A stretch of DNA of 64,000 nt from an uncultured delta proteobacterium (GTDB lineage Bacteria; Desulfobacterota; Binatia; UBA9968). Shown here in pieces: positions 10,601 through 59,176 of this stretch (position 1 is the first letter of the stretch; the number at the start of each line of letters is the position of its first letter). The DNA lies in NCBI GenBank assembly GCA_963745035.1, contig CAVUVW010000014.1, positions 544,001 through 608,000 on the forward strand, written 5' to 3'. The position numbers and the translations under genes were made by a program. The notes under the pieces are model-generated. The model was given only the letters and a program-made list of their open reading frames with translations. It searched no databases and was not told the DNA's origin.

Positions 10601-10620
10601 AATTGGACCTTGGTCCAATA
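10601..10620 (-). promoter_or_regulatory. 20-bp palindromic operator, copy 1 (leftward promoter)
   Basis: AATTGGACCTTGGTCCAATA; on the minus strand TGG-TAGCGA follows, hexamer 22 nt downstream. Confidence 0.75.
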
Positions 10621-10765
10621 GATCATCCGGCGTTCGCAGGCATACCCGCGGGAGCAAGCCGTACTCGCGACAAGTCTCTATTTGAGAAGTTCAACAGTGA
10701 GAGAGAAGCGACTCCGCGTAAGCAAAATTCAAAACCCCGTTCGCCTCGGTGGGTCGGAATCTTGA

Positions 10766-10785
10766 TATTGGACCAAGGTCCAATA
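10766..10785 (+). promoter_or_regulatory. 20-bp palindromic operator, copy 2
   Basis: TATTGGACCAAGGTCCAATA; TGA-TAATTT, hexamer at 10806 (20-nt gap); upstream of the DUF3604 operon. Confidence 0.8.
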
Positions 10786-10998
10786 GTCCTGCAATTCATT
10801 CCTGATAATTTGCCCCCGGCGGCGATCCGTCGAGCGACGAGATGGTTGCACAGCTATGGCAAATCTCAGCGCTTTCGGCTTTTGGCCCGAGTAGACCGAG
10901 ACGCAGCATTTTTCGGAGCAGCGTACGGCTGGAAGTTCGGAGCCATCGCTATGAGTGCAGTTGCAAACAGCGTCAGCAAGCAAAGGATGGCAAAAACA

Positions 10999-12981
10999 AT
11001 GGCGAAAAAGAAATTACTGCTAAACTCAGCAAAAAACATCAAACGCCGTACCTTCATGAAGATCGCCGCGGCGACGGCTGCCGGCGTCGCCGTACCAGTG
11101 TTGGCGCAGATGCAGACCGACGTCGGTACGCTCGATAAGGAGCAAGCCGCTAAAGCCTTCCCCAGCAAATCGCCGTACTCGCCGTACGCGGGACACGATT
11201 TTCCGACCCGGCCGTTTTTCGGCGACACCCACACACACACGTCGTTCTCGATGGATGCCGGCGCTTTCGGCGCCCGGCTCGGTCCGGCCGATGCCTACCG
11301 CTTCGGCAAGGGACAAGAAGTTGTCGCCTCCAGCGGCCAGCGCGCCAAGCTCTCGCGTCCGCTCGATTTCATGGCGGTCACCGATCATTCAGACCAAATG
11401 GGATTTTTCCCGGATCTCTTCGCGGGCAAGGCTGAAATACTCGGCGATCCGGCGGGGCGCAGGTGGTACGACATGATTCAGTCGGGCAAGGGCGCGGAAG
11501 CAGCCGTTGAAATTATCGTGGCGTTTTCCCAGGGTACCTTCCCTAAGAAGCTGCAGTATTTGCCGGGTTCGTCGGCGTACCGCAGCGCCTGGCGCGAAAC
11601 GATCAAGACAGCGGACGATGCTAACGACCCCGGCCGGTTTACGGCCTTCATCGGCTTCGAGTGGACCTCGAACACCGGCGGCAACAATCTCCACCGAAAC
11701 GTCATCTTTCGCGAAAACGGAGAGCGCGCTCGTTTAGTCGAGCCGTTCACCGTTTATCCGCCGCTCGGCAGCGATAATCCGCGCGATCTCTGGAAATGGA
11801 TGGCGATGACGGAAGAAAAAACCGGCAGCGAAGTGCTAGCGCTGGCGCACAATGGCAATCTCAGCAACGGCCGCATGTTCCCGATCATCGAGTCGTTCAC
11901 AGGTAACAAGATCGACCGTGCTTACGCCGACGGCCGCACTCGCTGGGAGCCGCTCTACGAAGTGACGCAGATCAAAGGGGACGGCGAAACCCATCCGTTC
12001 CTTTCGCCCAACGATGAGTTCGCCAACTTCGAGCGCTGGGACAAGGGCAATCTCGATCTCAGCGAACCGAAGAAGCCCGAGATGCTCGAGTTCGAATACG
12101 CTCGCTCGGCGCTCAAGAACGGCCTCAAGCTGGAAGCAGAGCTCGGCGTCAATCCTTACAAGTTCGGTCTCGTCGGCAGCACCGACACGCACACCGGGCT
12201 TGCCGCCGTGGAAGAGGATAATTTCTTCGGCAAAGCGTCAAACTCCGAGCCCGGCCCGGACCGCGCTATTCATCCCTGGCTTAAGGCACCCAGCGGCGCA
12301 GTGATCATGGGCTGGGAGCAGACCGCTTCGGGCTACGCCGCCGTCTGGGCCACGGAAAATACTCGCGCCGCGCTTTTCGACGCTATGAAGCGCAGGGAAG
12401 TTTATGGCACCACCGGCCCGCGCATGATCGTGCGCTTCTTCGGCGGATTCGATTTCGAGGCGAGAGACGCGCAGACCCGCTTGCCGGCGAGAATCGGCTA
12501 CACCAAGGGCGTGCCTATGGGCGGCGATCTGTCGAACGCGCCCAAAGGCAAGGCGCCGACGTTTCTCGCCGCCGCTCTGAAAGACCCGATCGGCGCCAAT
12601 CTGGATCGCTATCAGATCATCAAAGGCTGGCTCGACGCCAAGGGCCAGCCCCACGAAAAGATCTACGACGTCGCATGGTCTGGGGCACGCAAGCCGGATC
12701 CGAAAACCGGCAAGCTGCCCTCGGTGGGCAATACGGTGGATGTCGAGAACGCGACCTGGACCAACACCATCGGCGCAACCGAGCTGATCGCCGTGTGGAG
12801 AGATCCGGAATTCGATCCGGCGCAGCGCGCCTTTTACTACGGCCGCGTGATCGAGATTCCGACGCCGCGTTGGACCGCCTACGACGCGAAATATTTCGGC
12901 GTCAAGATGCCGAAGGAAGTGCCGATGACCACCACCGAGCGCGCCTACACTTCACCGATCTGGTATACGCCGGCGAGCTGA
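10999..12981 (+). CDS. Tat-exported DUF3604 protein (PHP-like metallohydrolase fold)
   Basis: Twin-arginine signal KRRTFMK; GDTHTHT, VTDHS, HRNV, HNGNLSNG, GSTDTH and ERAYTSPIWY; the ORF-track start at 10540 is overextended across the promoter. Confidence 0.88.
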   Translation: MAKKKLLLNSAKNIKRRTFMKIAAATAAGVAVPVLAQMQTDVGTLDKEQAAKAFPSKSPYSPYAGHDFPTRPFFGDTHTHTSFSMDAGAFGARLGPADAYRFGKGQEVVASSGQRAKLSRPLDFMAVTDHSDQMGFFPDLFAGKAEILGDPAGRRWYDMIQSGKGAEAAVEIIVAFSQGTFPKKLQYLPGSSAYRSAWRETIKTADDANDPGRFTAFIGFEWTSNTGGNNLHRNVIFRENGERARLVEPFTVYPPLGSDNPRDLWKWMAMTEEKTGSEVLALAHNGNLSNGRMFPIIESFTGNKIDRAYADGRTRWEPLYEVTQIKGDGETHPFLSPNDEFANFERWDKGNLDLSEPKKPEMLEFEYARSALKNGLKLEAELGVNPYKFGLVGSTDTHTGLAAVEEDNFFGKASNSEPGPDRAIHPWLKAPSGAVIMGWEQTASGYAAVWATENTRAALFDAMKRREVYGTTGPRMIVRFFGGFDFEARDAQTRLPARIGYTKGVPMGGDLSNAPKGKAPTFLAAALKDPIGANLDRYQIIKGWLDAKGQPHEKIYDVAWSGARKPDPKTGKLPSVGNTVDVENATWTNTIGATELIAVWRDPEFDPAQRAFYYGRVIEIPTPRWTAYDAKYFGVKMPKEVPMTTTERAYTSPIWYTPAS

Positions 12982-12983
12982 GG

Positions 12984-13028
12984 GAGGGTCGAGGGGGGAA
13001 AAGCGACGAGGGTCGAGGGACGAGTGAG
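12984..13028 (+). repeat. heptamer array, left arm (GAGGGTC/GAGGGAC)
   Basis: gagggtc gaggggg gaaaagc gac gagggtc gagggac gagtgag immediately after the DUF3604 stop. Confidence 0.8.
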
Positions 13029-13383
13029 TCAGAGCGGACTAGAGAGCTTCGGCGCGTACCAAAAAGCGCGACAATTGTTTGATCTCGTCGCCGCGGACAT
13101 GGAGACAGTCAAGACAAATCCTCTCTGCTATCGGCTGGTATCACAACAAATGGGCAGTGCGGATTCCATCTGCGCCAACATCGAAGAAGGTTATGGAAGG
13201 TTGAGCCGGGTTGAGTATGTCCGCTTCCTCGATATCGCACGGGGCTCAGCTCGCGAAACCCGCGGGCGCTATGAGCGGATGAAGCATTGGCTAAACGAGA
13301 ATGTAGTCCGTCAACGGATCGAATTGCTCGATGAGATCATCGGCATATTGACCAGCTCTATTGAAAGGATGAGACGAAGGTGA
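13024..13383 (+). CDS. four helix bundle protein (23S rRNA IVP / Avd-like family)
   Basis: AYQKA...LVSQQMGSADSICANIEEGYGR...YVRFLDIARGSARET family signature. Confidence 0.9.
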   Translation: MSQSGLESFGAYQKARQLFDLVAADMETVKTNPLCYRLVSQQMGSADSICANIEEGYGRLSRVEYVRFLDIARGSARETRGRYERMKHWLNENVVRQRIELLDEIIGILTSSIERMRRR

Positions 13384-14378: not shown

Positions 14379-15453
14379 ACAGAATCGGGGTGACACGAGT
14401 GTCGGGTGTCGAGTGTCGTACCGCGCTCTCGCATGTCGCACCCTTTGCTTACTTCTGTTTCTTTTTTCCGGATTTCCTCTGTTCGCGCACGAAGTGCGCC
14501 CGGCTTATCTGGAGCTGCGTCAGACCGGCGCCGAGACTTACGACATCTTGTGGAAAGTGCCCGGGCAGGGAGAAGATCTGCGCCTGGGACTTTACGTGCA
14601 ACTGCCGGAGAGCTGCTCGAACCTGACGCAACCGCGCGGCGCTTTCGCCGCCAACGCTTATACCGAGCGTTGGAGCGTCCAATGCTCGGGAGGCTTGAGC
14701 GGCGGCACGATCCGCATCGCCGGCCTCTCGGCGACAATGACCGACGTTTTGGTGCGCATCGAGCGAGTCGAGGGCTCGACCCAGATCACTCGCCTCACGC
14801 CGGCGACTTCCTCATTCGTCGTCGAAGCCGCCCCGAGCCGAATGGAAATCGTCCGTACCTATCTCATTCTCGGCATCGAGCACATTTTAACCGGCGTGGA
14901 CCATCTGCTGTTCGTGCTCGGCCTCCTACTGCTGGTGCGCGGATTCGGCCGGCTGGTCAAAACGGTGAGTGCATTTACCGTCGCGCACAGCGTCACCCTG
15001 GCCTTGGCGACGCTCGGCTTTGTTCATGTTCCCTCTCCGCCAGTGGAAGCGGTGATTGCCTTGAGCATCGTCTTTGTCGCCAAAGAAATTCTCCGCAGCC
15101 GCGGCAGGTCTTCGTCCTCCCAGCCCAGTCTGACGGAGCGCCAGCCGTGGCTCGTCGCATTCTCTTTCGGGTTGTTGCACGGGTTGGGATTCGCGGGCGG
15201 ATTGAGCGAGGTGGGATTACCGCAAGGACACATCCCGCTCGCGCTGCTGCTGTTCAGTATCGGCGTCGAGGTCGGCCATTTCGGTTTCATCGCGGCGGTG
15301 TTCGCATTGATGGCGCTCGGTCACCGAGCGATGCAATGGCTGCGCTTACCGCAAACATCGCTTCATCGATCCGCCGTGCTCCGACTGCTGCCGCCGTATG
15401 CGATTGGCGGCACGGCAATGTTCTGGCTGATTGAACGAATCGCGGCGTTTTGA
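14375..15453 (+). CDS. HupE/UreJ family membrane protein (apparent frameshift near 5' end)
   Basis: AHEVRPAYL, GIEHILTGVDHLLF, FTVAHSVTL, FGLLHGLGFAG; ATG 14375 overlaps the upstream stop but is out of frame with the body. Confidence 0.85.
14388..14417 (+). repeat. heptamer array (GAGTGTC type)
   Basis: gggtgac ac gagtgtc gggtgtc gagtgtc. Confidence 0.7.
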
Positions 15454-16542: not shown

Positions 16543-16583
16543 TTCAATATCAAGTTCATTTCGCCTGAATAGCCGATATTGCG

Positions 16584-21923: not shown

Positions 21924-22691
21924 CTACTGATTCAGATGCGTATGTGCGTAGCGCAACGCATCGGCGGAGACCTTGAGCATGCCGTCGAACGGCCCATCCA
22001 TCTCCAATACGAGGAATATGGCGCCGCCAACAGACAGCGCGCAAACGAAGAGGACCGTAACAACCATGGCGTTCCGAGGAGCGAACAACCCGAAACTCGC
22101 GAATGTGATCGTAAGCCAGAACAGGAGGATCGCAAGGAACGGCATAGGAATTGACGACCCGGTGCTAGCCATTGCAAGCCACCTGCTTTGTAAGATCGCT
22201 TCCGCGAGGTCCAGCGCCCGCGCCTGGAACGCCCGCTGGGAGTCGTCCTGCGGCTTCAGACCCCGGACTGCGTCCGCGAGTCGCTCAGCTGCTAACGCTG
22301 TGCCCGAGCGCATCGGGTCCAGATCGGCTGGCTTGGATGAGCCCTGCCCCCAAACCATGTCGATTCGAGCCCCAACCGCGCGCTGCAAGCCCTTGCGAAT
22401 CTCGCCGGTCTCGGACCCGTAGCGAGCAAGTACGCGGTCGAGAGCGAGGAGTTGAGTGGCGGTTTGCTTCACGGTTGTGTCCACAGCATCAAAGGAACTC
22501 TTGGCCGAGGCGGTGACGAGGCCAAGAACGAGGGCGGTCATCGTGGCGATGAGCCCGACGCCAACCTTCACCGTATCTCTCGACTCAGCGTCGAGCCAAT
22601 GTTCTGGTAAGGCGGCGCGCAACCACATTCCGAGCAGGGCTCCCGCGAACGTACATGTGAACACGATAATCCCGACGATAGTAGCATCCAC
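21924..22691 (-). CDS. DUF4239-like membrane protein
   Basis: LPEHWL...VGLIATMTALVLGL...AKSSFD, LEMDGPFDG; GTG start inferred. Confidence 0.75.
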   Translation of the reverse strand: MDATIVGIIVFTCTFAGALLGMWLRAALPEHWLDAESRDTVKVGVGLIATMTALVLGLVTASAKSSFDAVDTTVKQTATQLLALDRVLARYGSETGEIRKGLQRAVGARIDMVWGQGSSKPADLDPMRSGTALAAERLADAVRGLKPQDDSQRAFQARALDLAEAILQSRWLAMASTGSSIPMPFLAILLFWLTITFASFGLFAPRNAMVVTVLFVCALSVGGAIFLVLEMDGPFDGMLKVSADALRYAHTHLNQ

Positions 22692-22711
22692 CGTTCTGGC
22701 TCCGACTTTCT

Positions 22712-22767
22712 CGGCTGTGCTTGTTTTGTGCCTGAACTCGGGCAGAACATACACCTTCCATTGTCGA
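22712..22767 (-). repeat. 56-bp inverted repeat, copy B
   Basis: Reverse complement tcgacaatggaaggtgtatgttctgcccgagttcaggcacaaaacaagcacagccg. Confidence 0.85.
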
Positions 22768-22768
22768 A

Positions 22769-22805
22769 GAAAAAGCAAGCGGGCCTCGAAAAGGGTCGGC
22801 CCACC
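22769..22805 (-). terminator. putative rho-independent terminator
   Basis: Minus strand: GGGCC...GGCCC stem followed by GCTTTTTTC. Confidence 0.45.
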
Positions 22806-22813
22806 GATTACTT

Positions 22814-22853
22814 GATGCCCCTGCGCGGCCATCCCGTACGGCCGAGGCCTCAG
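22814..22853 (+). repeat. 40-bp direct repeat, copy B
   Basis: gatgcccctgcgcggccatcccgtacggccgaggcctcag. Confidence 0.85.
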
Positions 22854-23021
22854 TGTATTCGACCCTCAGTTTCATTCTAACTTAGTCGCTAATCTCTGGA
22901 TCGCGGTATGTAACGATGTCTGAACTGAAACTCGGCGTACTTCGCCGTACCACCATTCGACTCCTATCTCTCTTCCCCGTCGAGAGTGTTACCGACTCCC
23001 ATTGAAATCGATTACTGCAAA

Positions 23022-23041
23022 TATTGGACTAAGGTCCAATA
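23022..23041 (+). promoter_or_regulatory. 20-bp palindromic operator, copy 3
   Basis: TATTGGACTAAGGTCCAATA; TAGATA at 23063 (21-nt gap); upstream of porin 1. Confidence 0.8.
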
Positions 23042-23216
23042 TCCAGCTTTGCTGCACTTCGATAGATAACTTGCGTTTCTGGTCGGCAAAAACCATGGTC
23101 GGCAGCAGCGCGATGCATGTCCCCGACGCACGCCAGTGCACTTGCAAGCCACTCACCTCGCAGATTCATCGCTTAAATCCACAACGTACAAATCTCACAG
23201 ATTCGGAGCACCATTC

Positions 23217-24599
23217 ATGAAGAGAACTTCAACTGTCCTGACTGCGATATTTCTTCTAACACTTTCGATCGGTGCGCAGTGTCATGCGGCGGACGCGCCG
23301 ACTGCAAATCCCTACTCGGGAGATCTATGGACGCGCTCGACGCTCAGCGGCGACTGGTGGGGTTTTCGCAACCAGCTTGCTGAAAAAGGCGTCACCCTCG
23401 ACATGAGCCTGACTCAGGCCGCGCAAGGCATCGTTCATGGCGGCAAAGACACCGGCTGGCAGTACGGCGGCGGACGCGGCGACATCATCCTCAATCTGGA
23501 CACGCAGAAACTTGGTCTTTGGCCCGGCGGGTTCTTGAACGTGGAAGCGGAAGGCAACTTTATTCCGGACGATACTTTGCGCAAATCGATCAACGGCAGG
23601 ACCGGTGCACTCATGCCGGTGAATAGCAATCAGTCTTTTCCCACTGCCGGCGGGCGACAACTTCAATTTCCCCGCTTTGAATTTTACTCAATTTCTGTCG
23701 CCTTACTTCGGCTTGACTATCGGCAAATACGCCACCGTCACCTCCAATTCCGGCGACATGAATGACTTTGCCCATGGCAAAGGCGACACCCAGTTCATGA
23801 ACACCGCATTGAACTTCAATCCGATGATAGTCTGTGACCATGCCTTACTCCACATTGGGCACCGGGCGTGATCGTATTGCCGACCAAGGATCCCAAGCAG
23901 GCGATTGTGAGCTTTTTTGTAATGTCATCGACCGGCAAAGCCAGCACCAGCGGCTTCGATGACTTGAATGATGACAATTTGACGTTTGCCGGTGAGGGCC
24001 GCGTGAGGACCGACTTTTTCGGCCTCACCGGGCATCAGCTTTTAGGCGCGACTTATTCCAACCGGAAATTCACTTCGATCGACCAGAACGCACGCTTCAT
24101 ATTCGAGAACGGCGCATTTGAGGAGGAGAAAGGCTCTTGGAACGTTTACTACAACTTCGATCAGTATTTTTACGAACCGAAGAAAGGATCTGGCGAAGGG
24201 ATCGGAATTTTTGGCCGCTTCGGCGCTTCGGACGGTGATCCTAACTTCATGCATTTTTTCTACAGTCTGGGGATTGGCGGCAAAGGCGTTATCCCGAACC
24301 GTGAACGCGACCGTTACGGATTCGGTTTTTACTACATCGATGTCAAGAATCCGAAACTCCAGGGCCTATTTCAAACCACGAAGTTGTTGCGCGATGAGCA
24401 CGGGTTCGAGGCTTTCTACAATATCGCCATTACGCCGTGGCTGGAGCTCACACCGGATATCCAGGTCGTTCGAGGGGCGCAGAAAGAGAAGGTTACCATC
24501 GGCACCCGTCCCGGACCCTTGGGACTACCCTTCATCGCCAGCCGAAAAAGCATCGGGACGGCGACGGTCTTGGGTGTGAGATTGAAGATGATCTTCTAA
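23217..24599 (+). CDS. OprB-family carbohydrate porin, copy 1 (two frameshifts ~23650, ~23835)
   Basis: Signal peptide, TLSGDWWGFRNQLAEKG, EAFYNIAITPWLELTPDIQ, C-terminal Phe; colinear with the paralog at 36104. Confidence 0.85.
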
Positions 24600-24637
24600 T
24601 TATGCCGGATTCCACTCTTCGTAACCCATCCATATCC

Positions 24638-24657
24638 TGTTGGACCAAAGTCCAATA
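24638..24657 (+). promoter_or_regulatory. 20-bp palindromic operator, copy 4
   Basis: TGTTGGACCAAAGTCCAATA; TGC-TAGACA, hexamer at 24680 (22-nt gap). Confidence 0.78.
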
Positions 24658-24718
24658 TACGGCGGCGGCGCCGCGGTGCTAGACAGAGTCACGATAAACC
24701 ATTTAAAAGGAGAGAGAG

Positions 24719-25285
24719 ATGAAGAAAAATATTTTAGCAGTGTTGTCGGCAATGATGCTGATCGGCGGGATCAGTTGCGCTCAAAATAAAGAAGCCGCTA
24801 CGAGGCCCGGCGTTGTGACTGTCGATGTCGTTAAATTGAGCGGCATCGTGAAAGCGATCGATCGAGACAAAAAGATGGTGACCGTCGAGGGGTCGGGCGG
24901 CAGAACGGTTGTGATCGATGCCACGAACGCGAGAAACCTCGATCAGCTGAAGGTCGGCGATAAAGTCAATTTGACGTACACCGAAGAAGTAGCGCTTTTC
25001 GTGAGAAAGTCAGACGATCCCCCGAGCGTGACCGAATTGCAAAACGTGGAACTGGCCCCGAAGGGTGAAAAGCCGGGAGGTGTAATCACCAAGACGATCG
25101 AAGTGACCGGCAGCGTCGAATCCATTGACATGAATAATCGGACCGTCGCATTGAAGGGCCCGGCCGGAAATGTCCGGACATATAAGGTGGGTCCAGAGGT
25201 AAAGAGGTTAAACGAGGTAAAAATGGGCGATCAAGTCGTGCTGCGGGTTACCCAAGCCGTGGCGCTGTCGGTGGGGAACCCCTGA
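24719..25285 (+). CDS. exported/lipoprotein with two tandem OB-fold-like repeats
   Basis: SD AAGGAG; GIVKAIDRDKKMVTVEG...LKVGDKV repeated as GSVESIDMNNRTVALKG...VKMGDQV. Confidence 0.8.
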   Translation: MKKNILAVLSAMMLIGGISCAQNKEAATRPGVVTVDVVKLSGIVKAIDRDKKMVTVEGSGGRTVVIDATNARNLDQLKVGDKVNLTYTEEVALFVRKSDDPPSVTELQNVELAPKGEKPGGVITKTIEVTGSVESIDMNNRTVALKGPAGNVRTYKVGPEVKRLNEVKMGDQVVLRVTQAVALSVGNP

Positions 25286-25479
25286 ATAAGAGCTCGAGCA
25301 AGAAAAAAATAATCGCCAGGCAAAGTTGACAGGAAGGCCCAGGGAGCGAGAAACTCCTCACCCCCCAGGCCTTCTTCTTGGCGCACTGATCGTCGCCCGA
25401 TTACTGGGAATTTGGCTGTCGAATCGCGGCTTCGTTCCTTTTCCGCGCGGGGGAAAGTCAATTAGAGCGACGACGGTGG

Positions 25480-25595
25480 CAAGCAAAGCTGAGTTTAAAA
25501 AGCTACTTGGTCAATGGCACAGGCCGGACGGCGGTTATGATTGGCGATCAAAAGTATCGCCGCCGATGGCTTGATTGGTGCGGGCTACTTCACTA
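25480..25595 (+). pseudogene. fragment of a conserved hypothetical protein (GxWxRPDGGY family)
   Basis: FKKLLGQWHRPDGGY, frameshift, LAIKSIAADG.I.AGYF, then truncated. Confidence 0.5.
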
Positions 25596-25631
25596 AACAG
25601 CCTGATTAAGACGCACTGCTGTACTAAGTCG

Positions 25632-26290: not shown

Positions 26291-26443
26291 CTCTAACGTT
26301 CCCTCCGGAAGTCTCGATCTGGCGTAACTCGATAATTTCGCTAAGATGTCGCGGTTGGCGCAAAAAGCCGTAGCCGATTCAGGCCTTGCGCTTCTCGCCG
26401 AACATCTAAACCTCCCGTGCTCCTCAACTCTTCTGAACCGCCG

Positions 26444-26463
26444 TATTGGACCAAAGTCCAATA
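26444..26463 (+). promoter_or_regulatory. 20-bp palindromic operator, copy 5
   Basis: TATTGGACCAAAGTCCAATA; TGA-TAGTTT, hexamer at 26484 (20-nt gap); upstream of the arylsulfatase. Confidence 0.8.
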
Positions 26464-26560
26464 GTCCTGAATTTCGTGCCTGATAGTTTTCCGCAGAACG
26501 CAATGATGGTTTGGCGGAATTGCACCAATCGTTTTAAAGACAAAGAGAAAGGAGAAACTA

Positions 26561-35747: not shown

Positions 35748-35767
35748 TATTGGACCAAAGACCAATA
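35748..35767 (-). promoter_or_regulatory. 20-bp palindromic operator, copy 6 (probably leftward)
   Basis: TATTGGACCAAAGACCAATA; minus-strand TACTAG begins after a 21-nt gap. Confidence 0.7.
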
Positions 35768-35948: not shown

Positions 35949-35968
35949 TATTGCACCAAAGTCCAATA
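35949..35968 (+). promoter_or_regulatory. 20-bp palindromic operator, copy 7
   Basis: TATTGCACCAAAGTCCAATA; TAGAAA at 35990 (21-nt gap); upstream of porin 2. Confidence 0.75.
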
Positions 35969-40371: not shown

Positions 40372-40391
40372 TATTGGACCAAAGTCCAATA
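40372..40391 (+). promoter_or_regulatory. 20-bp palindromic operator, copy 8
   Basis: TATTGGACCAAAGTCCAATA; TAGATT at 40413 (21-nt gap). Confidence 0.8.
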
Positions 40392-45194: not shown

Positions 45195-45214
45195 CATTGG
45201 ACTAAGGTCCAATA
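45195..45214 (+). promoter_or_regulatory. 20-bp palindromic operator, copy 9
   Basis: CATTGGACTAAGGTCCAATA; TAAGCG at 45236 (21-nt gap). Confidence 0.78.
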
Positions 45215-47008: not shown

Positions 47009-47098
47009 GTTAAGCGGACTGATCGCGAGTCCTTGCTGCTTAAGCGCCGCGCGCTCAAAGCAGGACGCTGTCGCGCAAGGATTCGGCATTGCGGCCCC

Positions 47099-49262
47099 GT
47101 GAGCTCTTCCAATAAAATCCTGATCGGACTTTGCGCCGGTGCCTTCGTCGGAATTTTCCTCGGCGAGCACGCCGGTGTGTTCAAATTCGCCGCGGATGGA
47201 TTTGTCAAGCTGCTGCAGATGACGGTGCTGCCGTACATCACTCTCTCGATCGTCACGAGTCTGGGAACTTTGAATTATACGCAGGTGAAGATCATCGGCC
47301 TTCGCGGTGGCGCAGTGCTTGTCGGCCTGTGGTGTCTCGCCCTGATTTTTACATTCCTGATCCCATTCGCATTCCCGGCCCTCGAAACCGCGTCATTTTT
47401 CAGCTCGACCCTGATCGCAGAGCGCCGGCCGTTTAATTTTGTCGATCTGTTCATTCCATCCAATCCGTTTCATGCGCTGTCGAACAACATTGTCCCGGCG
47501 GTCGTTCTGTTCTTTATTTTTTTCGGTGTCGCGCTCATCGGCGTGGAGCGCAAGCAAGTCGCGCTCGACGTTTTTAACGTCGCCAAAGAGGCCTTATCGA
47601 AAGCGACCAAAGCCATCGTGACTTTGACGCCTTATGGGGTTTTCGCCATCGCCGCAAATACCGCGGGCACCTTGAACCTCGACCAACTAGCCCGAATTCA
47701 GGTTTACCTGATCACGTACGTGATCGTTGCTCTCCTCGTGGCCCTTTGGGTATTGCCCGGTCTGGTCGCGGCGCTCACCCCCTTCAGCTATCGAGAGGTG
47801 CTCGGGCCGACGCGAGACGCGCTGATCACGGCATTCGTGGCGGCAGATTTGTTCATCGTCCTGCCGATCCTGATCCAGGCATGCAAGGACCTGTGCGAGC
47901 GTCATCAGCTCGTCGACGAGCGGACAAGGGCGCTGCCGGAATTGATCGTGCCCACGTCCTTCAATTTTCCCCATACCGGCAAGCTCCTCTCCATCAGCTT
48001 CATCTTGTTCGCCGGGTGGTTCGCCGATGCGGCGGTGCCGTCGTCGGAATATCCGCGCCTGGCACTGGCGGGTCTGCTTACGTTCTTCGGTAGTCTCAAT
48101 GTGGCGGTGCCGTTCCTGCTCGACCTGTTCCGCATCCCAACCGATACGTTTCAGCTTTTCCTGGCCACCGGCGTCATCAACTCAAGATTCGGCTCGCTGC
48201 TCGCGGCGGTCCACACGGTGGCGGTGGCGCTGCTCGGAAGCGCGGCGATTGTCGGTGCGCTGCGCTTCCGTCCGGCGCGCATCGCCCGCTATGTTGTGGT
48301 TACGGCCGGAGCTAACGGCTGTGATCATTGGTGGCTTGCGAGTAGTTTTTGACACCGCCCTAGCGGGAAGCTTTGCGCGGTGAGGAGCTGGTCTACGGAA
48401 TGCGTCCGCTCATGACCGCTGGTGATGCGCGGCTGTTGAAACCCGCCGAGCTTGGTGAGGGTGGAGAAGCGGCTGCGTCGGCGGGACCGCGGCTCGACAC
48501 GATCACACAACGTGGTACGCTCCGCGTCGGCGTGTTTGCTGATCGCCTGCCGTTCGTTTTCATCAACCGAGAAGGTCATCTGGTCGGGTTCGACGTCGAG
48601 ATGGCCCAGCTCCTTGCCCGTGATCTTGGAGTCATTGTTGAATTCGTCGAGATGGAAGCGGCCGGTCCGCGAAGTGCCCCCTTGTTGGCGGCGGGCATAT
48701 CGATGTGGCCATGACGGGATTTCCAGTGACGCGCGGCGCGCCAGCCAAATGCTTCATTCCGAGCCCTACCTGGAGGAGACCCTTGCGTTCGTGGTGAAAG
48801 ATCAACTGCGGGAGGAGTTTTCCAGCTGGGCTAACATACGGGAGCTCGGTAGTTTCTCTGTGCTGATTCCTGCCTTGCCGTACTTTATCGATGTGATAAG
48901 AACGCGCGCGCCACTGCTGAAGCTCACAGTGGCGGCCTCCATGATGCAAATCGAGCAGGCGATTAGAAATGGAACATCCGATGCGGTCGTGCTCCCCGCC
49001 GAGCGCGGCTCGGTTCTGAGCCTTGCTCTATCCAAAGTACACCGTGGTTGTGCCGGAACCGGGAATTGTCAAAATACCACTCGCCTATCCGGTGGCCCGC
49101 CGCGATCACGAGTTGGCAACGTTTCTAAATACCTGGATCGAGCTGAAACGGCGCGACGGCACCATCGAGGCTCTCTACGAGCCATTGGATCTGGGAAAGC
49201 AGGCAACCAGAAATCGGGCCCGCTGGTCGGTCATTCGCAACGTGCTCGGCTGGGTCGACTGA
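47099..49262 (+). CDS. cation:dicarboxylate (DAACS) symporter fused to an SBP family 3 domain (several frameshifts)
   Basis: FVKLLQMTVLPYI, FIPSNPF, SFNFPHTG; then RGTLRVG...VGFDVEMA...HSEPY...FLNTWIELK, RWSVIRNVLGWV. Confidence 0.8.
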
Positions 49263-49298
49263 TTCCTAGCGGAACAGTCAATACGAAATTCCCTGCGC

Positions 49299-49318
49299 CA
49301 TTGGACCAAGGTCCAATA
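49299..49318 (+). promoter_or_regulatory. 20-bp palindromic operator, copy 10
   Basis: CATTGGACCAAGGTCCAATA; TATCTA at 49340 (21-nt gap); upstream of the RND operon. Confidence 0.8.
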
Positions 49319-49442: not shown

Positions 49443-50625
49443 ATGCTGGAGGATCTCGTGAAAGTGAACCGTCTTACGTCACATAAAGCACGACTGCTGC
49501 CCATGCTGAACTCGATATATGCCTGCTGTGCGCTGGCACTAGCCGTTGCGTGCTCCAAAGAGGAGCCGCCGCCGCCTCCTCCGCCGGAGGTCCAGGTCAC
49601 TGCGGCCGTTCAGAAAGATGTGCCGATCTACATCGAGCTTGTCGGCGCAACGCTGGGGTCGGAGGATATCGAAATCCGCGCTCGCGTGGAAGGCTACCTT
49701 GCTTCGGTCAACTTCACCGAAGGCGCCTTCGTCAAAAAGGGGCAACTCCTTTACAAGATCGACCCCCAGCCCTTTCAAGCGGCATTGGCCCAAGCCCAGG
49801 CCAATTGGAGACCGCTCAAGCCCGGTTGGAAAAGACCAATAACGATGTGGCTCGGTATAAACCACTGGCCGAGCAGAAGGCGGTGAGCCAACAGGAGCTC
49901 GACAATGCGTTGTCGGCTCAAGAGGCGGCGCGGTTCCAGGTTACGGCCTACGATGCGCTGGTTTCCAAAGCCAAACTCGATCTTGCCTACACGACGATTA
50001 CCTCGCCGGTCGATGGTCTCATTGGGACGACGCAGAGGAAAGTCGGCAGCTTGGTGGGACGCGGTGAAAACACCTTGCTCAACACGATCTCGCAGGTCCA
50101 TCCGATTCTCTTCCGCTGCGCCATCGCCGAGGCGGAGTATCTGAGAATCGCCCGCCGCGGCGGCGATAGGAATAGATCTCTCGAGAAACAATTCGGCGTC
50201 GAGCTGATTCTCGCCGACGGAACCGTCATCCGCACAAAGGACGGCTCGACGCCATCGAACGCGCGGTGGATCCAACGACCGGCACTCTCACCGGGCAGTT
50301 TAGCTTTCCCAATCCTGAGCGGATTCTGCGCCCGAGCCAGTACGGGCGAGCACGATTCGTCACCGATCTGAAGGAAGACGCCGTTCTGATACCCCAACGC
50401 GGAGTACAGGAGATTCAAGGCCTGTATAGCGTCATGGTCGTCAAGCCGGATTCGACGGTGGAGCAGCGTATGGTGAAAGCCGGCGAACGCGTCGGCAGTT
50501 TGTGGGTCATCGAGTCGGGCATCAAGCCGGGAGAAAAGGTCGTCGTGGAGGGCGTTCAACGAGTCCGCCCGGGAGTGCAAGTGAACGCGAAACCGGAGAA
50601 GCCGCAAGAAACGATCGCCAGCTGA
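49443..50625 (+). CDS. RND efflux periplasmic adaptor (frameshifted)
   Basis: Lipobox VAC, EIRARVEGYL, GQLLYKIDP, ITSPVDG, VDPTTGT. Confidence 0.85.
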
Positions 50626-50681
50626 GACCAAACGCGCCGCCGCTGGAAGGCCCTGCCAAGGACGCGAAAGGAAAGTAGGCC

Positions 50682-53600
50682 ATGGCAAATTTTTTTATCC
50701 GCCGGCCCATCGTCGCCATCGTCATTTCCATCATCATGGTTATGATGGGGCTTTTCACGCCTGAAGGGGCTCAGCGTCGAGCAGTATCCATTTCTCGCCC
50801 CGCCCACCATTCGCGTGACGGCGACCTACCCCGGCGCCTCGGCCGTGGCGGTCGAGCAATCGGTGGCGACCCCCATCGAGCAGGAAGTCAACGGCGTCGA
50901 CAAGATGATCTACATGAAATCGTCGAACACCAGCGACGGCCGCATGCAGCTCGACGTCAATTTCGAGGTCGGCGTCGATCAGGACACGGCGAACGTCTTG
51001 ACCCAGAACCGGGTCTCGTCGGCGCAGGCCCGGCTGCCGCAGGAAGTCGTGCAGCAGGGAGTCACCGTCAAAAAGCAAAGCCCAAGTATTTTGATGCTTA
51101 TCTCTCTCTACTCGCCGAAGGAAAGCTACGACGCCAATTTTCTGATCAATTATTCCGGCATCAACCTGCGCGACCAGATACTGCGGATTCCCGGGATCGC
51201 CCAGGTCGATCTCTTCGGCGGCGCCGACTACGGCATGCGCATCTGGCTGCGCCCGGACCGGCTCGCTAATCTCGCCGTCACTCCTGCCGACGTGATCTCG
51301 GCAATCAGGGAGCAGAACCTGCAGGCGCCGGCCGGGCGCGTGGGCATGGCGCCCTCTCCCAAGGACCAGGAGTTTACCTGGACCGTGAGCGCACCCGGCC
51401 GTCTCGTCAATCCGGAGGAGTTCGAGAACATCATCATCCGCCAGACCCAAACCGGCGCGCAGATTCGAGTCAAAGACGTCGGCCGCGCCGAGCTCGGCTC
51501 GCAGGACTACAACTCCTTCGGCCGTCTGGATGGGAAATCCGCCGGCACCATGGCCGTCTACCTGCTGCCGGGCGCGAACCAGCTCCAGGCATCCGAGGCG
51601 ATTTACGAAACCATGAACCGTGCGAAAGCGCTGTTTCCGCCGGACATGGACTACAAGATCGTCTATGACACCACGCCCGCGGTCGAAGGCCTCCATCGAG
51701 GGGATCGTTCATACGTTTCTCGAGGCGATCGTCCTGGTCACGCTCGTCGTCTTTATTTTCCTGCAGAATCTGCGCGCGACCATCATCCCGCTTATCACCG
51801 TGCCCGTGTCGCTGATCGGCACGTTCATTTTTTTCCCGGCTGCTCGGCTTTTCGGTGAACACTCTTTCGATGTTCGGCCTCGTGCTCGCCATCGGTATCG
51901 TCGTCGACGATGCCATCGTCGTCGTCGAAGCGGTGATGCACCACCTCGAGCACGGCATGAGTCCCAAGGGAGGCGACCATCCAGGCGATGAAGGAAGTGT
52001 CGGCCCCGGTCATCGGTATCGCGCTCATCCTCTCCGCCGTGTTCATTCCCGTGGCGTTCCTGGGCGGCCTCACCGGACGCATGTATCAGCAGTTCGCCCT
52101 TACCATCGCGATCTCGGTGCTGCTCTCGGCTTTCAGTGCCTTGTCGCTCTCGCCGGCGCTCTGCGCCATGTTCCTTGCGCGCGCCAAAACCGGCGCGCGG
52201 TCCTCTGGGAAAATTTTTCGGCGGATTCAACTGGGTCTTCGAGCGCTCGACGACAAAGTATGTCAACGCCACCCGGCTGCTCGTGCGGCGGTCGATGCTG
52301 ACGATCGTGATCATCGCTGGAGTGGCTGTCGGGAGCGGGCCTCTTCGGTACCGCGCTGCCGGCGGGTTTCATTCCCGAAGAAGACCAGGGGATGTTCGGC
52401 ATCAACGTGACGCTGCCTCCCGCCGCATCGCTCGAGCGAACCGGCAGAGTTTTGTCCCAGGTGGAGCAGATCGTGGCGAAGACCGAGGGAGTCGACGCGT
52501 TTACGACGCATCGGCGGCTATGGAGTCGTGACCAGCACGTATCAGCCCAACTTCGGCTACGATCTTCGTTCGTCTGAAGCCGTGGGATGACCGACATACC
52601 GAAGCACTGCACGTGCGCGGCATCATGGCGACGCTTGCAGACCGCAGCTAGCGAAGATTTCCGAGGCGATCATCTTTCCGTTCAATATCCCGACGATTTC
52701 CGGGTTTGGCGCATCGGCGGGCTTCAATTTTCTGCTGCAGGACCGCAGCGGCTCGCTCACCGTGCAGCAGCTCGGCGAGCTGTCGCGCCAGTTTCTCGAC
52801 GCGGCGCGCAAACGGCCGGAGCTCGCCAATCTCTTCACCTCCTTCGATCCGCGCTATCCCGCAAATCAAAGTTGATCTCGACCGGGAAAAGGCGCGCAAA
52901 CTCGGCGTACCGGTCAATGAGGTGTTCCAGGCGCTGTCGGCGGTTATGGGCGGCACCTACGTGAACGACTTCAACCGCTTCGGCCGCTTGTTCCGCGTCT
53001 ATGTACAGGCGGATGCCGACTATCGCCGCAAGCCCAAAGATATCGGCGACATCTACGTGCGCAGCGAAACCACCAAAGGCATGATTCCGCTTTCGACGCT
53101 GGTCACCATCACTTCGGAAAGCGGCACCGAAGTCACCAATCGGTTCAATCTGTTCCGCTCGGTGGAAATCAACGGCGTTCCCGGCCGCGGCTTTACCTCC
53201 GGCCAGTCGTTGGCAGCGCTGGAAGAGGTGTTCAAGGAGACGATGCCGAAGGAAATGGGTTTTGCCTATTCTAGCCTTTCCTATCAGGAGAAGGTGGCGC
53301 CGCCGGCGCGGCCCGACGTTCGTTCTCGCCATCGTGTTCGTCTTCCTGCTGCTCGCCGCCATGTATGAGAGCTGGCGCTTGCCCTGGGCGGTTTTGCTCG
53401 GCTCGCCGCTGGTTGCCCTGGGCTCGTTCTTCGGCGTCTGGCTGATGGGCTACGACAACAACGTTTACGTTCAGATCGGCAATATCATGCTCATCGGCCT
53501 CGCGGCGAAAAACGCGATCCTGATCGTCGAGTTCGCCAAAGCAAAACACGAAGAAGGCATGTCGCTTCAAGAGGCCGCTTTGGAGTCGGCGCGCCTGCGC

Positions 53601-53849
53601 TTCCGGCCGATCCTTATGACTGCGTTTGCGTTCATCCTGGGCGTGGTGCCGTTGATGATCGCGAGCGGCGCAGGCGCCGGCGCGCAGAACGTGATGGGGA
53701 CTGCGGTCTTTTGGGGTATGTTGGTCGCCACTGCTCTCGGCGTTTTCCTCATCCCAGGAAACTTTGCGTTTGTCATGGGTCTCGGGGCAAAGAAGAAGCA
53801 AGCTCCAGTGGCGGTTCCCACTGTGCCATCGCACGAGGGGGCGCACTAG
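50682..53849 (+). CDS. HAE1/AcrB-type RND permease (multiple frameshifts)
   Basis: [49 protein letters not shown]. Confidence 0.88.
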
Positions 53850-55892: not shown

Positions 55893-55949
55893 CGAGGGTC
55901 AGGCCAAGTCGATATCTTCAAAGGGGCAACCGCTAACTGAATTGCGATC

Positions 55950-56411
55950 ATGAATCCTGAAACAGGCAGAAAAGTTGGCGCGATCATTTTCGGCGCGGTT
56001 GTCGGGCTCGGACTCGGTGTCGGCGCATACACTCTTCTTTATGCCAAGGGTTGGGCTTACTTGACCAATGACCCGGCGGCCTGCGCCAACTGCCATATCA
56101 TGCAGGGGCATTTGGATGCGTGGATCAAGTCGACTCATCGGGCGGTTGCAACCTGTAACGACTGCCACACGCCGCACAACTTTTTCGGCAAATACTATGT
56201 CAAGGCGGATCACGGCTTCTGGCACTCCTACGCGTTTACCACGGGCAACTTTCACGAACCGATTCACATGACGGCGCGCAGCCAACAAGTTACCGAAGGC
56301 GCGTGCCGCAACTGCCACGAGGAAATTGTCCACGCCATCGAAACCATACAAAGCAACGGCGGCCAATTGTCCTGCATCCGCTGCCATGGCTCGGTCGGCC
56401 ATCCTATGTGA
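55950..56411 (+). CDS. nrfH: cytochrome c nitrite reductase small subunit
   Basis: N-terminal TM helix, four hemes CANCHIM, CNDCH, CRNCH, CIRCH. Confidence 0.93.
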   Translation: MNPETGRKVGAIIFGAVVGLGLGVGAYTLLYAKGWAYLTNDPAACANCHIMQGHLDAWIKSTHRAVATCNDCHTPHNFFGKYYVKADHGFWHSYAFTTGNFHEPIHMTARSQQVTEGACRNCHEEIVHAIETIQSNGGQLSCIRCHGSVGHPM

Positions 56412-56442
56412 CCTAGGTACAAGAAAGGACGGTGTTCCATTC

Positions 56443-57858
56443 ATGAGCGCGCAAAGCAATCCGCCCGAACGGCCATTAAATTGGCCGAGGTTCCTGCTGT
56501 TTGTCGGCGTCGCGGCACTCATCACCGCGGGCATTGCGGCGCTCCTTGTAAACATCTTCGAGCGCAAGCAGGAGGCACGCAATCCGTTCTATCGGGTCGT
56601 CGAGTTGACCGACGACACAGAAGATCCGGCGGTGTGGGGGAAGAATTTTCCGCTGCAATACGACGACTACAAAAGAACCGTCGATCAGGTGCGCACCCGC
56701 TTCGGTGGCAGCGAGGCGCTGCCGCGTACTCCGAGCAAGGTCGATCCGCGCTCGACGCTTTCACAATCGAAGATCGAGGAAGACCCACGCTTGAAAGTAA
56801 TGTGGGCCGGCTACGCCTTCGCCAAAGACTTCCGCGAGGAGCGCGGTCACGCTTACATGCTCGACGATCAAACCTTGACCGAACGGCAAAAGGTGGTCAA
56901 GCAACCGGGCACATGCATCCAATGCCATGGTTCGGTCTACGTGCCCTACAAGAAGGCGGGAAACGGCGACATCATCAAAGGCTTCGAGAAATTGAATCAG
57001 ATGCCTTTCTTCGAAGCCCGCAAGCTGGTCTCGCACCCGGTGAGCTGCATCGATTGTCACGATTCGAGCACCATGCAATTGCGCGTTACCCGTCCCGGTT
57101 TCATCGAGGGGATCCGCGCCTTCAAAGCCTCACAGGGAATTCAGAATTATGACGTCAACAAGCAGGCGACGCGCCAGGAAATGCGCGCGTATGTCTGCGG
57201 CCAGTGTCATGTCGAATATTATTTCAAGGGAGCGGAAAAGCGGCTCGTGTACCCATGGGCCAAAGGGCTCAAGGTCGAAAACATCCAAGCTTATTACGAC
57301 GAGGAGCAGTTCAAGGACTGGACCCATGCCGACACGGGGGCTTCCACGCTCAAAGCCCAACACCCGGAATTCGAGCTGTGGAGCCAGGGCATCCACGCGC
57401 GCTCGGGCGTGACCTGCGCCGACTGCCATATGCCCTACAAACGCGAAGGCGCGCTCAAGATCAGCGACCACCACGTGCGCAGCCCGGTGCTCAACATCAA
57501 CCGCGCCTGTCAGACCTGCCACAAATGGCCCGAGGAAGAGCTCAAGGCGCGCATCGAGACAATTCAGGAGCGTACCTTCAAGCTCCGCAATGTGGCAATG
57601 GACGCGCTGATGGATCTGGTCAAGGATCTCAAGGCGGCGAAGAGCGCCGGCAAGACCGACAAGGAGCTAGCCGCGTCGCAGGATTTTCAGCGCAAAGCGC
57701 AGTTCTATCTCGACTTCGTCGAGGCGGAAAACTCCACCGGCTTTCACGCGCCGCAGGAGGCGGCCCGGATACTCGGTGAGTCGGTGGATTTCTCCAGGAA
57801 GGGTCAGATTGCGCTGCGCGATGGTAAAGGTGGAATGGGATCTCAAACGGCTAAATAG
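56443..57858 (+). CDS. nrfA: ammonia-forming cytochrome c nitrite reductase, CXXCH heme-1 variant
   Basis: WAGYAF...ERGH, five hemes CIQCH, CIDCH, CGQCHVEYYF, CADCHMPY, CQTCH; KAQHPEFE; AENSTGFH. Confidence 0.93.
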   Translation: MSAQSNPPERPLNWPRFLLFVGVAALITAGIAALLVNIFERKQEARNPFYRVVELTDDTEDPAVWGKNFPLQYDDYKRTVDQVRTRFGGSEALPRTPSKVDPRSTLSQSKIEEDPRLKVMWAGYAFAKDFREERGHAYMLDDQTLTERQKVVKQPGTCIQCHGSVYVPYKKAGNGDIIKGFEKLNQMPFFEARKLVSHPVSCIDCHDSSTMQLRVTRPGFIEGIRAFKASQGIQNYDVNKQATRQEMRAYVCGQCHVEYYFKGAEKRLVYPWAKGLKVENIQAYYDEEQFKDWTHADTGASTLKAQHPEFELWSQGIHARSGVTCADCHMPYKREGALKISDHHVRSPVLNINRACQTCHKWPEEELKARIETIQERTFKLRNVAMDALMDLVKDLKAAKSAGKTDKELAASQDFQRKAQFYLDFVEAENSTGFHAPQEAARILGESVDFSRKGQIALRDGKGGMGSQTAK

Positions 57859-57925
57859 TCAATGTGATCCTACCGTGAGGATCAATACGCATCCAGAGAG
57901 GGAACAAAGGGGGAGGGTGACGCTT

Positions 57926-58756
57926 GTGTTTAAGATTCTAGCTAATCGCGTTTGGTACGGGATCCTGGCGCCTTGCTTGATCGTTTTTGCTTCATCGGGT
58001 TGCATTGTCAACACTTACCAACCGCCTAAACCGGAGCCGCCGCCCCCAGCGTCGGGCACTCTGCTTAAATCTCAGTTACGAGTCGGCATTTCACCCGATT
58101 ACATGCCGCTGGCTTTCAAAGATCCGGCGTTGGGACTTGTGGGAGTGGAAGTAGACTTTGCCGAAGGAATCGGCAACGGGCTTGGAAAAAAGATAGTTTT
58201 CGTCGAGACCCCGTTTCCCGAATTGATCCAATCGCTGCTTGAAGACCGCATCGACATGATTATGTCCGGCATGACAATCACCAAGGAAAGGGCCGAACGG
58301 ATAAGCTTTACCGATCCTTATGCGCGCATCGCTCAGATGGCACTGGTGCGCGCCAAAGATCGGTCCGACTTTCCCAACGCGCAGTCCTTTTATCGACTAA
58401 CTTCGAAGGTCGGCTACGTGCAAAAAACCAGTGGCGAGCTGGCGGCTAGAACGTTCTTTCCGCAAGCGACCATAGCGCCTCAGCCAACCATTGAGGCGGG
58501 CGTTGCGGGCCTGCGCAAGGGGGAAATAGCAGTATTCATCCATGATGCACCTACGGTTTGGCGCATTGCCGGCAATCCGAGCGAAAAAGAGCTGGTGGGG
58601 TTGTACTGGCCGTTGACACAAGAGTCGCTGGCCTGGGCGGTGAGAAAAGACGACGAGCCTTTGCGGTTTGCGCTCAATCGCGAGCTTGACAATTTGAAGT
58701 TAAGCGGCCGCTTAAAACAAATACTGTCCAAATGGGTTCCTTTAAGAATCTGGTAA
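57926..58756 (+). CDS. SBP family 3 (polar amino acid type) substrate-binding lipoprotein
   Basis: Lipobox SSGC, LRVGISPDYMP, DMIMSGMTITKER, FTDPY. Confidence 0.85.
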   Translation: MFKILANRVWYGILAPCLIVFASSGCIVNTYQPPKPEPPPPASGTLLKSQLRVGISPDYMPLAFKDPALGLVGVEVDFAEGIGNGLGKKIVFVETPFPELIQSLLEDRIDMIMSGMTITKERAERISFTDPYARIAQMALVRAKDRSDFPNAQSFYRLTSKVGYVQKTSGELAARTFFPQATIAPQPTIEAGVAGLRKGEIAVFIHDAPTVWRIAGNPSEKELVGLYWPLTQESLAWAVRKDDEPLRFALNRELDNLKLSGRLKQILSKWVPLRIW

Positions 58757-58890
58757 GCAACGCGAGCGCATTAGGACCGCATCAAACTGCTAAGCCTAAT
58801 CCGACCCTGATTGCGCTGCGCGACGGCAGAAACGAAACAAAGTCGGCGGTCGCAAGATAGCCAACTCGGACTCACGTTAGGGAGGCCTTT

Positions 58891-59076
58891 ATGAATAACG
58901 TGGTTCATATCGGCACGCGATTGGAGAAAGAGCGAAAACGTCGTTGGCCCAACACGCTGGCGATGACGGTGGGTCCACTGTTGTTGCTGATCATCTATTT
59001 TCTTCTGCTCGAACAGAACGGATTTCCAATTCTTGATCTGAACGGTGACGAGCAAGTCGTCGAAGCGACGCCGTAA
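58891..59076 (+). CDS. small hypothetical membrane protein
   Basis: SD GGAGG, 61 aa with one TM helix. Confidence 0.55.
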   Translation: MNNVVHIGTRLEKERKRRWPNTLAMTVGPLLLLIIYFLLLEQNGFPILDLNGDEQVVEATP

Positions 59077-59156
59077 GCCGCTCGATAGCACTGACCAAGC
59101 GCTTGTCGGAAGCGTCAAGCAACTGACGCGATGCGGCAATCGCTCAGGGATCTACG

Positions 59157-59176
59157 TATTGGACCAAAGTCCAATA
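59157..59176 (+). promoter_or_regulatory. 20-bp palindromic operator, copy 11
   Basis: TATTGGACCAAAGTCCAATA; TATTGG at 59198 (21-nt gap); upstream of the FDH operon. Confidence 0.78.

Follow-up and report, generated by a model that had tools for sequence, protein, structure and literature searches.

A 20-bp palindrome in an accessory island of an uncultured Binatia bacterium as the putative operator of a StyR/FixJ-family response regulator

Introduction

The 64,000-nucleotide window analysed here belongs to the genome of an uncultured delta proteobacterium of the Binatia (assembly GCA_963745035.1, contig CAVUVW010000014.1, positions 544,001 to 608,000 of the forward strand; G000:C14:544001-608000 in our numbering, where G000 is the source genome and C14, C13 and C25 are its contigs). 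It carries eleven copies of a 20-bp palindrome, TATTGGAC-YAAR-GTCCAATA, with arms TTGGAC and GTCCAA, in which the original prediction saw the mark of a regulon under one activator.

Several described regulators bind comparable sites. For EL222, a measured consensus of RGNCYWWRGNCY is quoted in a citing source (PMC10521638), and an EL222 site at the lux-box position activates in Escherichia coli (PMC5001607). DosR is reported to bind the 20-bp palindrome TTSGGGACTWWAGTCCCSAA (PMC2275270), to read GGGACT with K179, K182 and N183 and, in the cryo-electron microscopy structure of its activation complex, to occupy a box centred at −43.5 (PMC13486717). The consensus given for StyR and TodT is ATAAAC-N4-GTTTAT (PMC5874301), and StyR activates from a site at about −40 (PMC2442086).

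The palindrome compares unequally with these sites. The EL222 consensus fits 22 of the 24 copies in the genome. The copies themselves extend over 20 bp as near-perfect palindromes flanked by TATT/AATA; taken by itself, the 12-bp EL222 consensus has 231 matches genome-wide, of which 22 fall in the island described below. The core GGAC-N4-GTCC is common to the palindrome and the DosR box. A resemblance to the StyR box had also been proposed, and this holds for the inner AC-N4-GT, the only part of the StyR/TodT consensus that is shared; the rest differs, and the EL222 consensus and the DosR core are closer.

Results

The palindrome and its promoters

A motif scan of the window re-found all eleven copies where they had been predicted, with 0-1 arm mismatches. 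Allowing up to 3 mismatches added no further copy in the window, and 100 shuffles of the window gave a mean of 0.07 copies and a maximum of 1, which makes a chance origin of the eleven unlikely. They are real as a set but amount to less than half of the regulon, as the whole genome holds 24 copies at ≤2 mismatches: 23 at C14:510407-670001 and one at C13:352881, where it precedes OmpA-like and phospholipase D-like genes (assigned by eye). With 23/24 copies in 2.2% of the genome, within one island of C14, the placement is not random genome-wide. All 24 are two-fold symmetric 20-bp palindromes with 0-2 mismatches, as a dimer site would be, and the flanks of the copies are unrelated to one another. 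The copies in the window (boxes) are:

10601..10620, minus strand: box, leftward; TA at +23 (10578); faces a split MlaA-lipoprotein/hydrolase gene (Pfam MlaA)
10766..10785, plus strand: box; TA at +21 (10806); faces an operon of DUF3604 (twin-arginine translocation, TAT, signal), peptidyl-prolyl isomerase (PPIase) and HupE/UreJ
23022..23041, plus strand: box; TA at +22 (23063); faces the first, frameshifted OprB porin
24638..24657, plus strand: box; TA at +23 (24680); faces a 188-amino-acid secreted protein at 24719
26444..26463, plus strand: box; TA at +21 (26484); faces an arylsulfatase (CTAGR motif) and DUF202/DUF1622 genes
35748..35767, minus strand: box, used leftward though its spacer YAAR reads rightward; TA at +22 (35726); faces a split cyclic nucleotide monophosphate (cNMP)-patatin gene
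35949..35968, plus strand: box; TA at +22 (35990); faces the second OprB porin, an alpha carbonic anhydrase and MscS
40372..40391, plus strand: box; TA at +22 (40413); faces DUF4410 and lipoprotein/hydrolase genes
45195..45214, plus strand: box; TA at +22 (45236); faces small secreted, SpoIIAA-like and dicarboxylate symporter genes
49299..49318, plus strand: box; TA at +22 (49340); faces a resistance-nodulation-division (RND) efflux operon, with nrfHA-like genes further downstream
59157..59176, plus strand: box; TA at +22 (59198); faces formate dehydrogenase-N (in-frame TGA 59976-59978)

The spacing to the putative −10 region is fixed. A TA starts 21-23 nucleotides past the box on the gene side in 24/24 copies and on the opposite side in 1/24; for exact boxes of other genomes, TA lies at +21 to +23 in 101/110 on the YAAR side vs 19/110 on the other. 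The eleven TA hexamers listed in the original prediction are where it placed them, nine rightward and two leftward (TAGCGA for 10601, TACTAG for 35748). Because this TA is taken as the start of the −10 hexamer, the box centre is placed at −43.5 (range −42.5 to −44.5) relative to the predicted start sites, overlapping the −35 position and in agreement with the centre near −43 proposed earlier; the same 24/24 and 101/110 promoters thus share a predicted centre near −42/−44. The −10 region itself is biased, with G at +20 and TA at +22/+23, and varies across phyla away from the TA. A sigma70 consensus scan of window positions 22500-27000 gave 1 site vs 2.5 expected and none at a box. Two public metatranscriptomes (contigs only) shared 0.05 of words and were uninformative on start sites, levels and habitat.

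The asymmetric spacer YAAR is directed at the downstream gene in 23/24 copies, the exception being 35748. The original prediction gave every copy this spacer, which is generally the case, except that 10601 reads CTTG, that is, YAAR on the minus strand. It also held all copies to be intergenic: none of the 23 C14 copies falls inside a gene retained by a codon-score gene caller, but some overlap mechanical open reading frames (ORFs). Thus 10601 and 10766 overlap an upstream extension of the DUF3604 frame, with which relatives align only from 10999, 49299 overlaps a frameshift fragment, and 26444 and 45195 overlap minus-strand frames that the codon-score caller rejected.

Two boxes at L018:3362-3409 (C14:651362-651409) face in opposite directions 28 nucleotides apart, each with its own TA, between divergent genes; 10601/10766 and 35748/35949 form wider-spaced divergent pairs.

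A candidate reader at the head of the island

The window is the middle of an island of about 162 kb (C14 about 510200-672200), and a FixJ/NarL-type regulator such as had been predicted to lie elsewhere was found in the island, 24 kb to the left of the window. Pfam GerE matches number 12 in the genome, three of them in the island, and the proposed reader is the sole intact StyR/FixJ-type regulator among the 12; the others were judged by eye to be receiver-type, remnant or sigma-like. The relevant features are:

C14:519224-519871: StyR/FixJ-family regulator, proposed reader; receiver and GerE domains (Pfam); helix EKTIKVHRAR
C14:515370-519149: multi-PAS sensor kinase of 1259 amino acids with one FixL/DosP-like heme-PAS domain, directly before the regulator
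C14:519937: box before a single-domain receiver gene (C14:519996-520436)
C14:510193-510426: truncated second regulator plus box at the left island border (GerE match in the truncated copy, C14:510193-510348; box follows)
C14:611247: degenerate NarL-like fragment; GerE match in the island

The gene of the proposed reader ends about 66 nucleotides before the box at C14:519937, so that a regulator whose own locus carries the motif, a check suggested with the original prediction, does exist. Its closest solved structure is StyR (E 4e-59), and its named close relatives are labelled Candidatus Binatia. The island regulator is not a LOV-helix-turn-helix (HTH) protein; LOV domains were not searched genome-wide.

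On contig C25, L009 (about 574-1121) holds a frameshifted EVT-type StyR/NodW-like regulator. No sister box for it, with TAT, CAT or TAA arms, was found genome-wide.

Association of the box with EKT-type regulators

Within the genus, a match to the regulator was found in 14/30 genomes, 13 of them EKT-type, and 12 of these 13 have a box (≤1 mismatch) 82-515 nucleotides downstream. A putative cognate receiver-GerE regulator co-occurs with the box, with four exceptions in the genus. In family f1, boxes and regulator co-occur in the same 3/14 genomes.

Two wider sets were assembled from opposite ends. The motif-first set, an exact-pattern scan of species genomes, comprises at least 116 stretches vs about 9 expected (own arithmetic, equal base frequencies). 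Its 80 listed loci come from Binatia, Desulfobacterota, Paraburkholderia/Caballeronia, Alpha- and Gammaproteobacteria, Verrucomicrobia, Acidobacteria, Planctomycetes, Rokubacteria/Methylomirabilis, Aminicenantes, Bacteroidetes and Actinomycetes, about ten phyla overall, and all 20 StyR/FixJ-type helices found among the at least 116 loci read EKT[IV]K. The protein-first set consists of 79 metagenome loci, chosen with a search pattern that favoured EK/ER helices and used no DNA; its tally leaves out 5 unparsed rows, and one other helix listing leaves out 6. Here a box at ≤2 mismatches lies near 11/29 EKT-type vs 0/53 other regulators, and at 3 mismatches near 16/29 vs 1/53. In the family of genome G047 the corresponding counts are 4/8 EKT-type vs 0/41 others, and 7 and 0 at 3 mismatches. 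A sample of the class, with the source genome's regulator excluded, shows the GG core at 8/9 EKT-type loci vs 1/23 others, and one more locus has a 3-mismatch box. Genome G091 has 16 paralogues and no box; the 9 paralogues inspected are all EIT-type.

A two-contig genome of the same class (G180, L386-L389) has 19 boxes and at least three EKT-type regulators, each in or beside a box cluster.

Helix residue and box core

Perfect XXAC-N4-GTxx cores around the protein-chosen regulators were sorted by the first helix position. For K-type regulators, GGAC-N4-GTCC was found in 30/52 (0.5 expected) and ATAC in 0; for I-type regulators, ATAC-N4-GTAT was found in 19/57 (0.2 expected) and GGAC in 1. A-type regulators have a TT core in 3/9, R-type ones TGYAC in a few cases (perfect cores 1/8), and V-type counts are mixed. 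None of the 10 loci whose FixJ-like helix has E as its second residue had a box.

A sister palindrome, with a consensus of about ACCTATACCAAAGTATAATT, accompanies EIT-type regulators (L188, L190, L193, L201, L213, L222, L223, L226, L172, L422 and L423). In most cases it follows the regulator closely, much as the GG box follows EKT-type regulators. It is not general for I-type regulators: none was found within 30 kb around L180 and L181, and two are in L179. TA lies at +21 to +23 of I-type boxes in only 9/25. NodW itself has an EIT helix. No NodW binding site is named in the passages of PMC5596368 consulted.

Target genes and the sensor kinase

The 121 island proteins, kinases and regulators excluded, were compared with 80 longer motif loci of other genomes, some of them from Binatia, so that the overlap is not all cross-phylum. 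Island proteins match 49/80 motif loci, vs 11, 0, 0 and 2 for four control regions of the source genome with about twice the residues each. In a survey of downstream genes (69/71 candidates scanned, 21 without Pfam match), the first genes include sulfatases, OmpA, MlaE, receivers, DUF3300, PPK2, superoxide dismutase and glycolytic enzymes. On the symbiosis plasmid of Paraburkholderia phenoliruptrix, boxes lie near an EKT regulator, one of them upstream of DUF3300-DUF2950 and next to glgX and glgP. Induction of the DUF3300-DUF2950 pair has been reported in two RNA sequencing studies of root-nodule bacteria (PMC4653623).

In genome G044 (L381:9813), a box precedes a homologue of the source-genome gene C14:499909, which is boxless there; this is a possible case of core-gene recruitment.

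For one PAS domain of the kinase, the named structural relatives are the heme-PAS domains of DosP and FixL, with His and Arg aligned, and the top match is an unnamed multi-sensor kinase domain. In DosP the aligned residues are the proximal His and the distal Arg. A structure predicted for the domain from its single sequence had a predicted local distance difference test score (pLDDT) of 39 and was not used. The island encodes a second kinase, of MASE1-PAS type.

The accessory island and its other genes

In 10/27 same-genus genomes the homologue of C14:672207 comes no more than about 1.5 kb after the DUF983 gene (here C14:509814-510194). Because these two border genes nearly adjoin in the relatives, about 162 kb are extra at this spot in the source genome. 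The GC content of the island is host-like. No tyrosine integrase was found in it (serine recombinases and transposases were not searched), no direct repeat of more than 14 nucleotides joins its ends, and a scan of the window found no tRNA gene there. Boxes are clustered in relatives too, though often at different positions; G003, for example, has 9 in a stretch of 97 kb and G004 has 7 in one of 35 kb.

The cargo includes envelope and transport functions (MlaE/D, MlaA, OprB porins, MscS, RND pump, SulP, DASS carriers), metabolic enzymes (NrfA-like nitrite reductase, formate dehydrogenase-N, fumarate reductase, aspartase, glycogen phosphorylase, phosphoketolase, Zwf) and DUF3300-DUF2950, DUF3604, sulfatases with a sulfatase-modifying enzyme, two PPK2 and carbonic anhydrases. 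The nrfH/nrfA-like pair (window 55950-57858) and a fumarate reductase-fumarase-aspartase-DASS cluster (L016:6786-16764) point to anaerobic respiratory capacity in the island. In the formate dehydrogenase-N alpha gene (window 59364-62435), the residues around the in-frame TGA read RL*HSSTV and a stable hairpin comes after it, consistent with selenocysteine.

At the left border, the truncated regulator HTH and its box (L013:10193-10426) directly follow DUF983, possibly as the scar of an earlier regulator cassette. Genomes G018 and G043 carry a regulator cluster at the same DUF983 border site, and other relatives have different inserts there. A PIN-domain-like toxin-antitoxin pair (L015:946-1622, assigned by eye) adjoins an AraC/QhpR-like regulator in the island, and a four-helix-bundle protein of the '23S rRNA intervening sequence' type (PF05635) is encoded between the DUF3604 and PPIase genes (window 13024-13383). 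Many genes of the window are split by frameshifts, among them a glucosidase (5780-8505), HupE/UreJ (14406-15453), a porin (23136-24599), the cNMP-patatin (33668-35552), a symporter-binding protein fusion (47033-49262) and the RND pump (49443-53849). These splits are probably assembly errors; decay is the other possibility.

Discussion

Taken together, our results make the palindrome the very probable operator of the StyR/FixJ-family response regulator whose gene stands at the head of the island, a reading to which we give a probability of roughly 85%. Sequence, spacing, clustering, gene neighbourhood and the link of the box with this helix type are observed; from these we infer the steps of activation. 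The adjacent multi-PAS kinase would phosphorylate the regulator, a dimer of which would bind the box at −43.5, overlapping −35, the two helix lysines that correspond to DosR K179 and K182 reading the GGAC half-site. The bound dimer would then bring sigma70 RNA polymerase to promoters whose −10 is no more than a weak (T)G-N-TA-type element. About 24 promoters, including that of the switch's own single-domain receiver, may in this way be turned on together, for a set of envelope and secreted proteins, sulfatases, porins, the RND pump, formate dehydrogenase-N and fumarate reductase. The island also encodes the nitrite reductase, PPK2, glycogen phosphorylase and phosphoketolase.

The signal is less certain. 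The heme-PAS match, together with the anaerobic respiratory cargo, suggests low oxygen as the signal in this genome, for which the odds seem to us a little short of even. Oxygen and a role in general stress or the stationary phase are equally likely. The input varies, with other sensor domains in other lineages, around a conserved output module. In its widest form the proposal is tentative: that the boxes mark, in Gram-negative bacteria of soil and sediment, a low-oxygen or dormancy regulon analogous to that of DosR, carried in about ten phyla on accessory islands that collect genes under one box, with a one-residue code in which K specifies GGAC-N4-GTCC, I specifies ATAC-N4-GTAT, and A and R perhaps specify TTAC and TGYAC.

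Several observations weigh against these interpretations. The His and Arg pair is present in only 5/13 same-genus kinases (some stretches being cut short) and in 0/7 kinases of the G047 family. Most copies have a −10 without the final T, which the sigma70 consensus scan misses. Among the metagenomic EKT-type loci, many of them short, 18/29 are without a box at 2 mismatches and 13 at 3. The regulators are related, so that the counts are not independent and Fisher values overstate the association; the K label is clustered on the regulator tree, with 7 changes, 3 of them forced by strong branches. This tree was built by a quick method from 166 rows; with 65/163 forks open and the source genome's own regulator omitted, we claim no origin or direction of transfer. 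Furthermore, three kinds of search recovered no EKT-type regulator of the StyR/FixJ type from four of the 13 same-genus genomes with at least 5 boxes (G006, G011, G044 and G045, with 5-13 boxes each). The receiver partner is absent in three of these four, as is the kinase core in three; the box clusters of G011, G044 and G045 reach contig ends, and G044 is 99% complete in 20 contigs. The absence of the regulator may reflect an assembly gap, a loss or a second reader.

A second reader, acting alone or additionally, could be the core-genome NarL-type regulator C13:1399914 (helix EKTVKTH). This protein has a DosR-like lysine pair and is present in G044 and G045, with a close paralogue (KKTVKTH) in G006, genomes in which the island regulator was not found. 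It is, however, equally present in G015, G008 and G007, all of them boxless, and no box lies near its gene, whereas in unrelated phyla the boxes stand in islands beside StyR/FixJ-type genes; we regard this alternative as unlikely.

It seems very unlikely that the box is a repressor operator over the −35, whether TetR-like or bound by the same regulator acting negatively, or a site of the island AraC protein C14:542308. FixJ-family proteins can repress elsewhere, as StyR does at STY3 (PMC2442086), and the AraC/QhpR-like gene ends 125 nucleotides before one box. Fixed spacing to a weak −10 without a −35 is, however, an activator arrangement, and the box sequence follows the StyR/FixJ helix type. 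The Thermus FadR consensus TTRNACYNRGTNYAA looks similar (PMC5597230) but has a centre of 3 nucleotides vs 4 in the box, and no TetR family member is among the island proteins scanned, which do not include every ORF.

The strictly fixed spacing and the biased −10 region, with its G and TA, would also suit a −35-type determinant of an alternative sigma factor. This is hardly credible for a 20-bp two-fold palindrome, which implies a dimer, next to a −10 region that varies across phyla away from the TA; no sigma factor is among the island proteins scanned. Mobile-element ends or recombinase targets with no role in transcription, a reading prompted by the clustering of the copies in an accessory island that relatives carry at varying positions, are largely refuted by the one-sided TA spacing and the regulator association. 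The unrelated flanks also count against them, as does the lack of a tyrosine integrase in the island, of a tRNA gene in the window and of an end repeat above 14 nucleotides.

Assigning the operator to the StyR/FixJ-family regulator places many recurring, uncharacterised genes for envelope functions, sulfatases and anaerobic metabolism under one predicted switch, both in cultured Paraburkholderia and Caballeronia and in uncultured lineages of soil and sediment. The code brings together, on a single AC-N4-GT scaffold, the sites known for StyR, EL222 and DosR. It would make the regulons of a large paralogous family predictable from protein sequence and offers a candidate box for EIT-type regulators. 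If true, it predicts sites for many uncharacterised StyR/NodW-like paralogues and gives DUF3300/DUF2950, DUF3604, DUF4410 and DUF1622 a physiological context.

Comparison with known systems

No description of the box or the regulon was found in the open-access literature, judged mostly from search listings, and six exact 14-nucleotide spellings of the core led there only to an unrelated yeast identification assay. The mechanism is conventional, and the regulon is undescribed in the literature searched.

FixL and FixJ, which form an oxygen switch, are the top NCBIfam models for the kinase and the regulator, but neither protein reaches the curated cut-off (422 of 850 bits for the kinase, 216 of 255 for the regulator). 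The kinase has a candidate heme-PAS domain resembling that of FixL, with His and Arg aligned, but is 1259 amino acids long and has extra sensor domains. Among the StyS/StyR, TodS/TodT and NodV/NodW systems, StyR has V where the island regulator has K, and controls one catabolic operon vs about 24 promoters here. EL222, from Erythrobacter litoralis, has EKTVKMH in its own helix vs EKTIKVH in the island regulator, and has a LOV domain, in place of which a receiver domain and a kinase are found here.

The DosR (DevR) dormancy system of Mycobacterium tuberculosis, with its kinases DosS/DosT, shares with the present one the GGAC half-site, the centre at −43.5 (predicted here) and many targets under one two-component switch, and by residue pattern E-K-T-I-K matches K179-T180-x-K182. 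The DosS sensor is GAF-based. In place of a DosR orthologue with N183 and GAF-heme kinases, the island has a StyR-like regulator, of the StyR/FixJ type and distant from DosR (HTH E about 1e-3), and a PAS kinase; V replaces N183, the outer arms of the box differ, and the boxes are mostly single, whereas DosR needs tandem pairs. By its sequence and predicted position, the palindrome is a candidate class II activator site of the DosR/EL222 kind, yet its regulon is no member of the DosR, StyR-box, EL222 or FixLJ systems.

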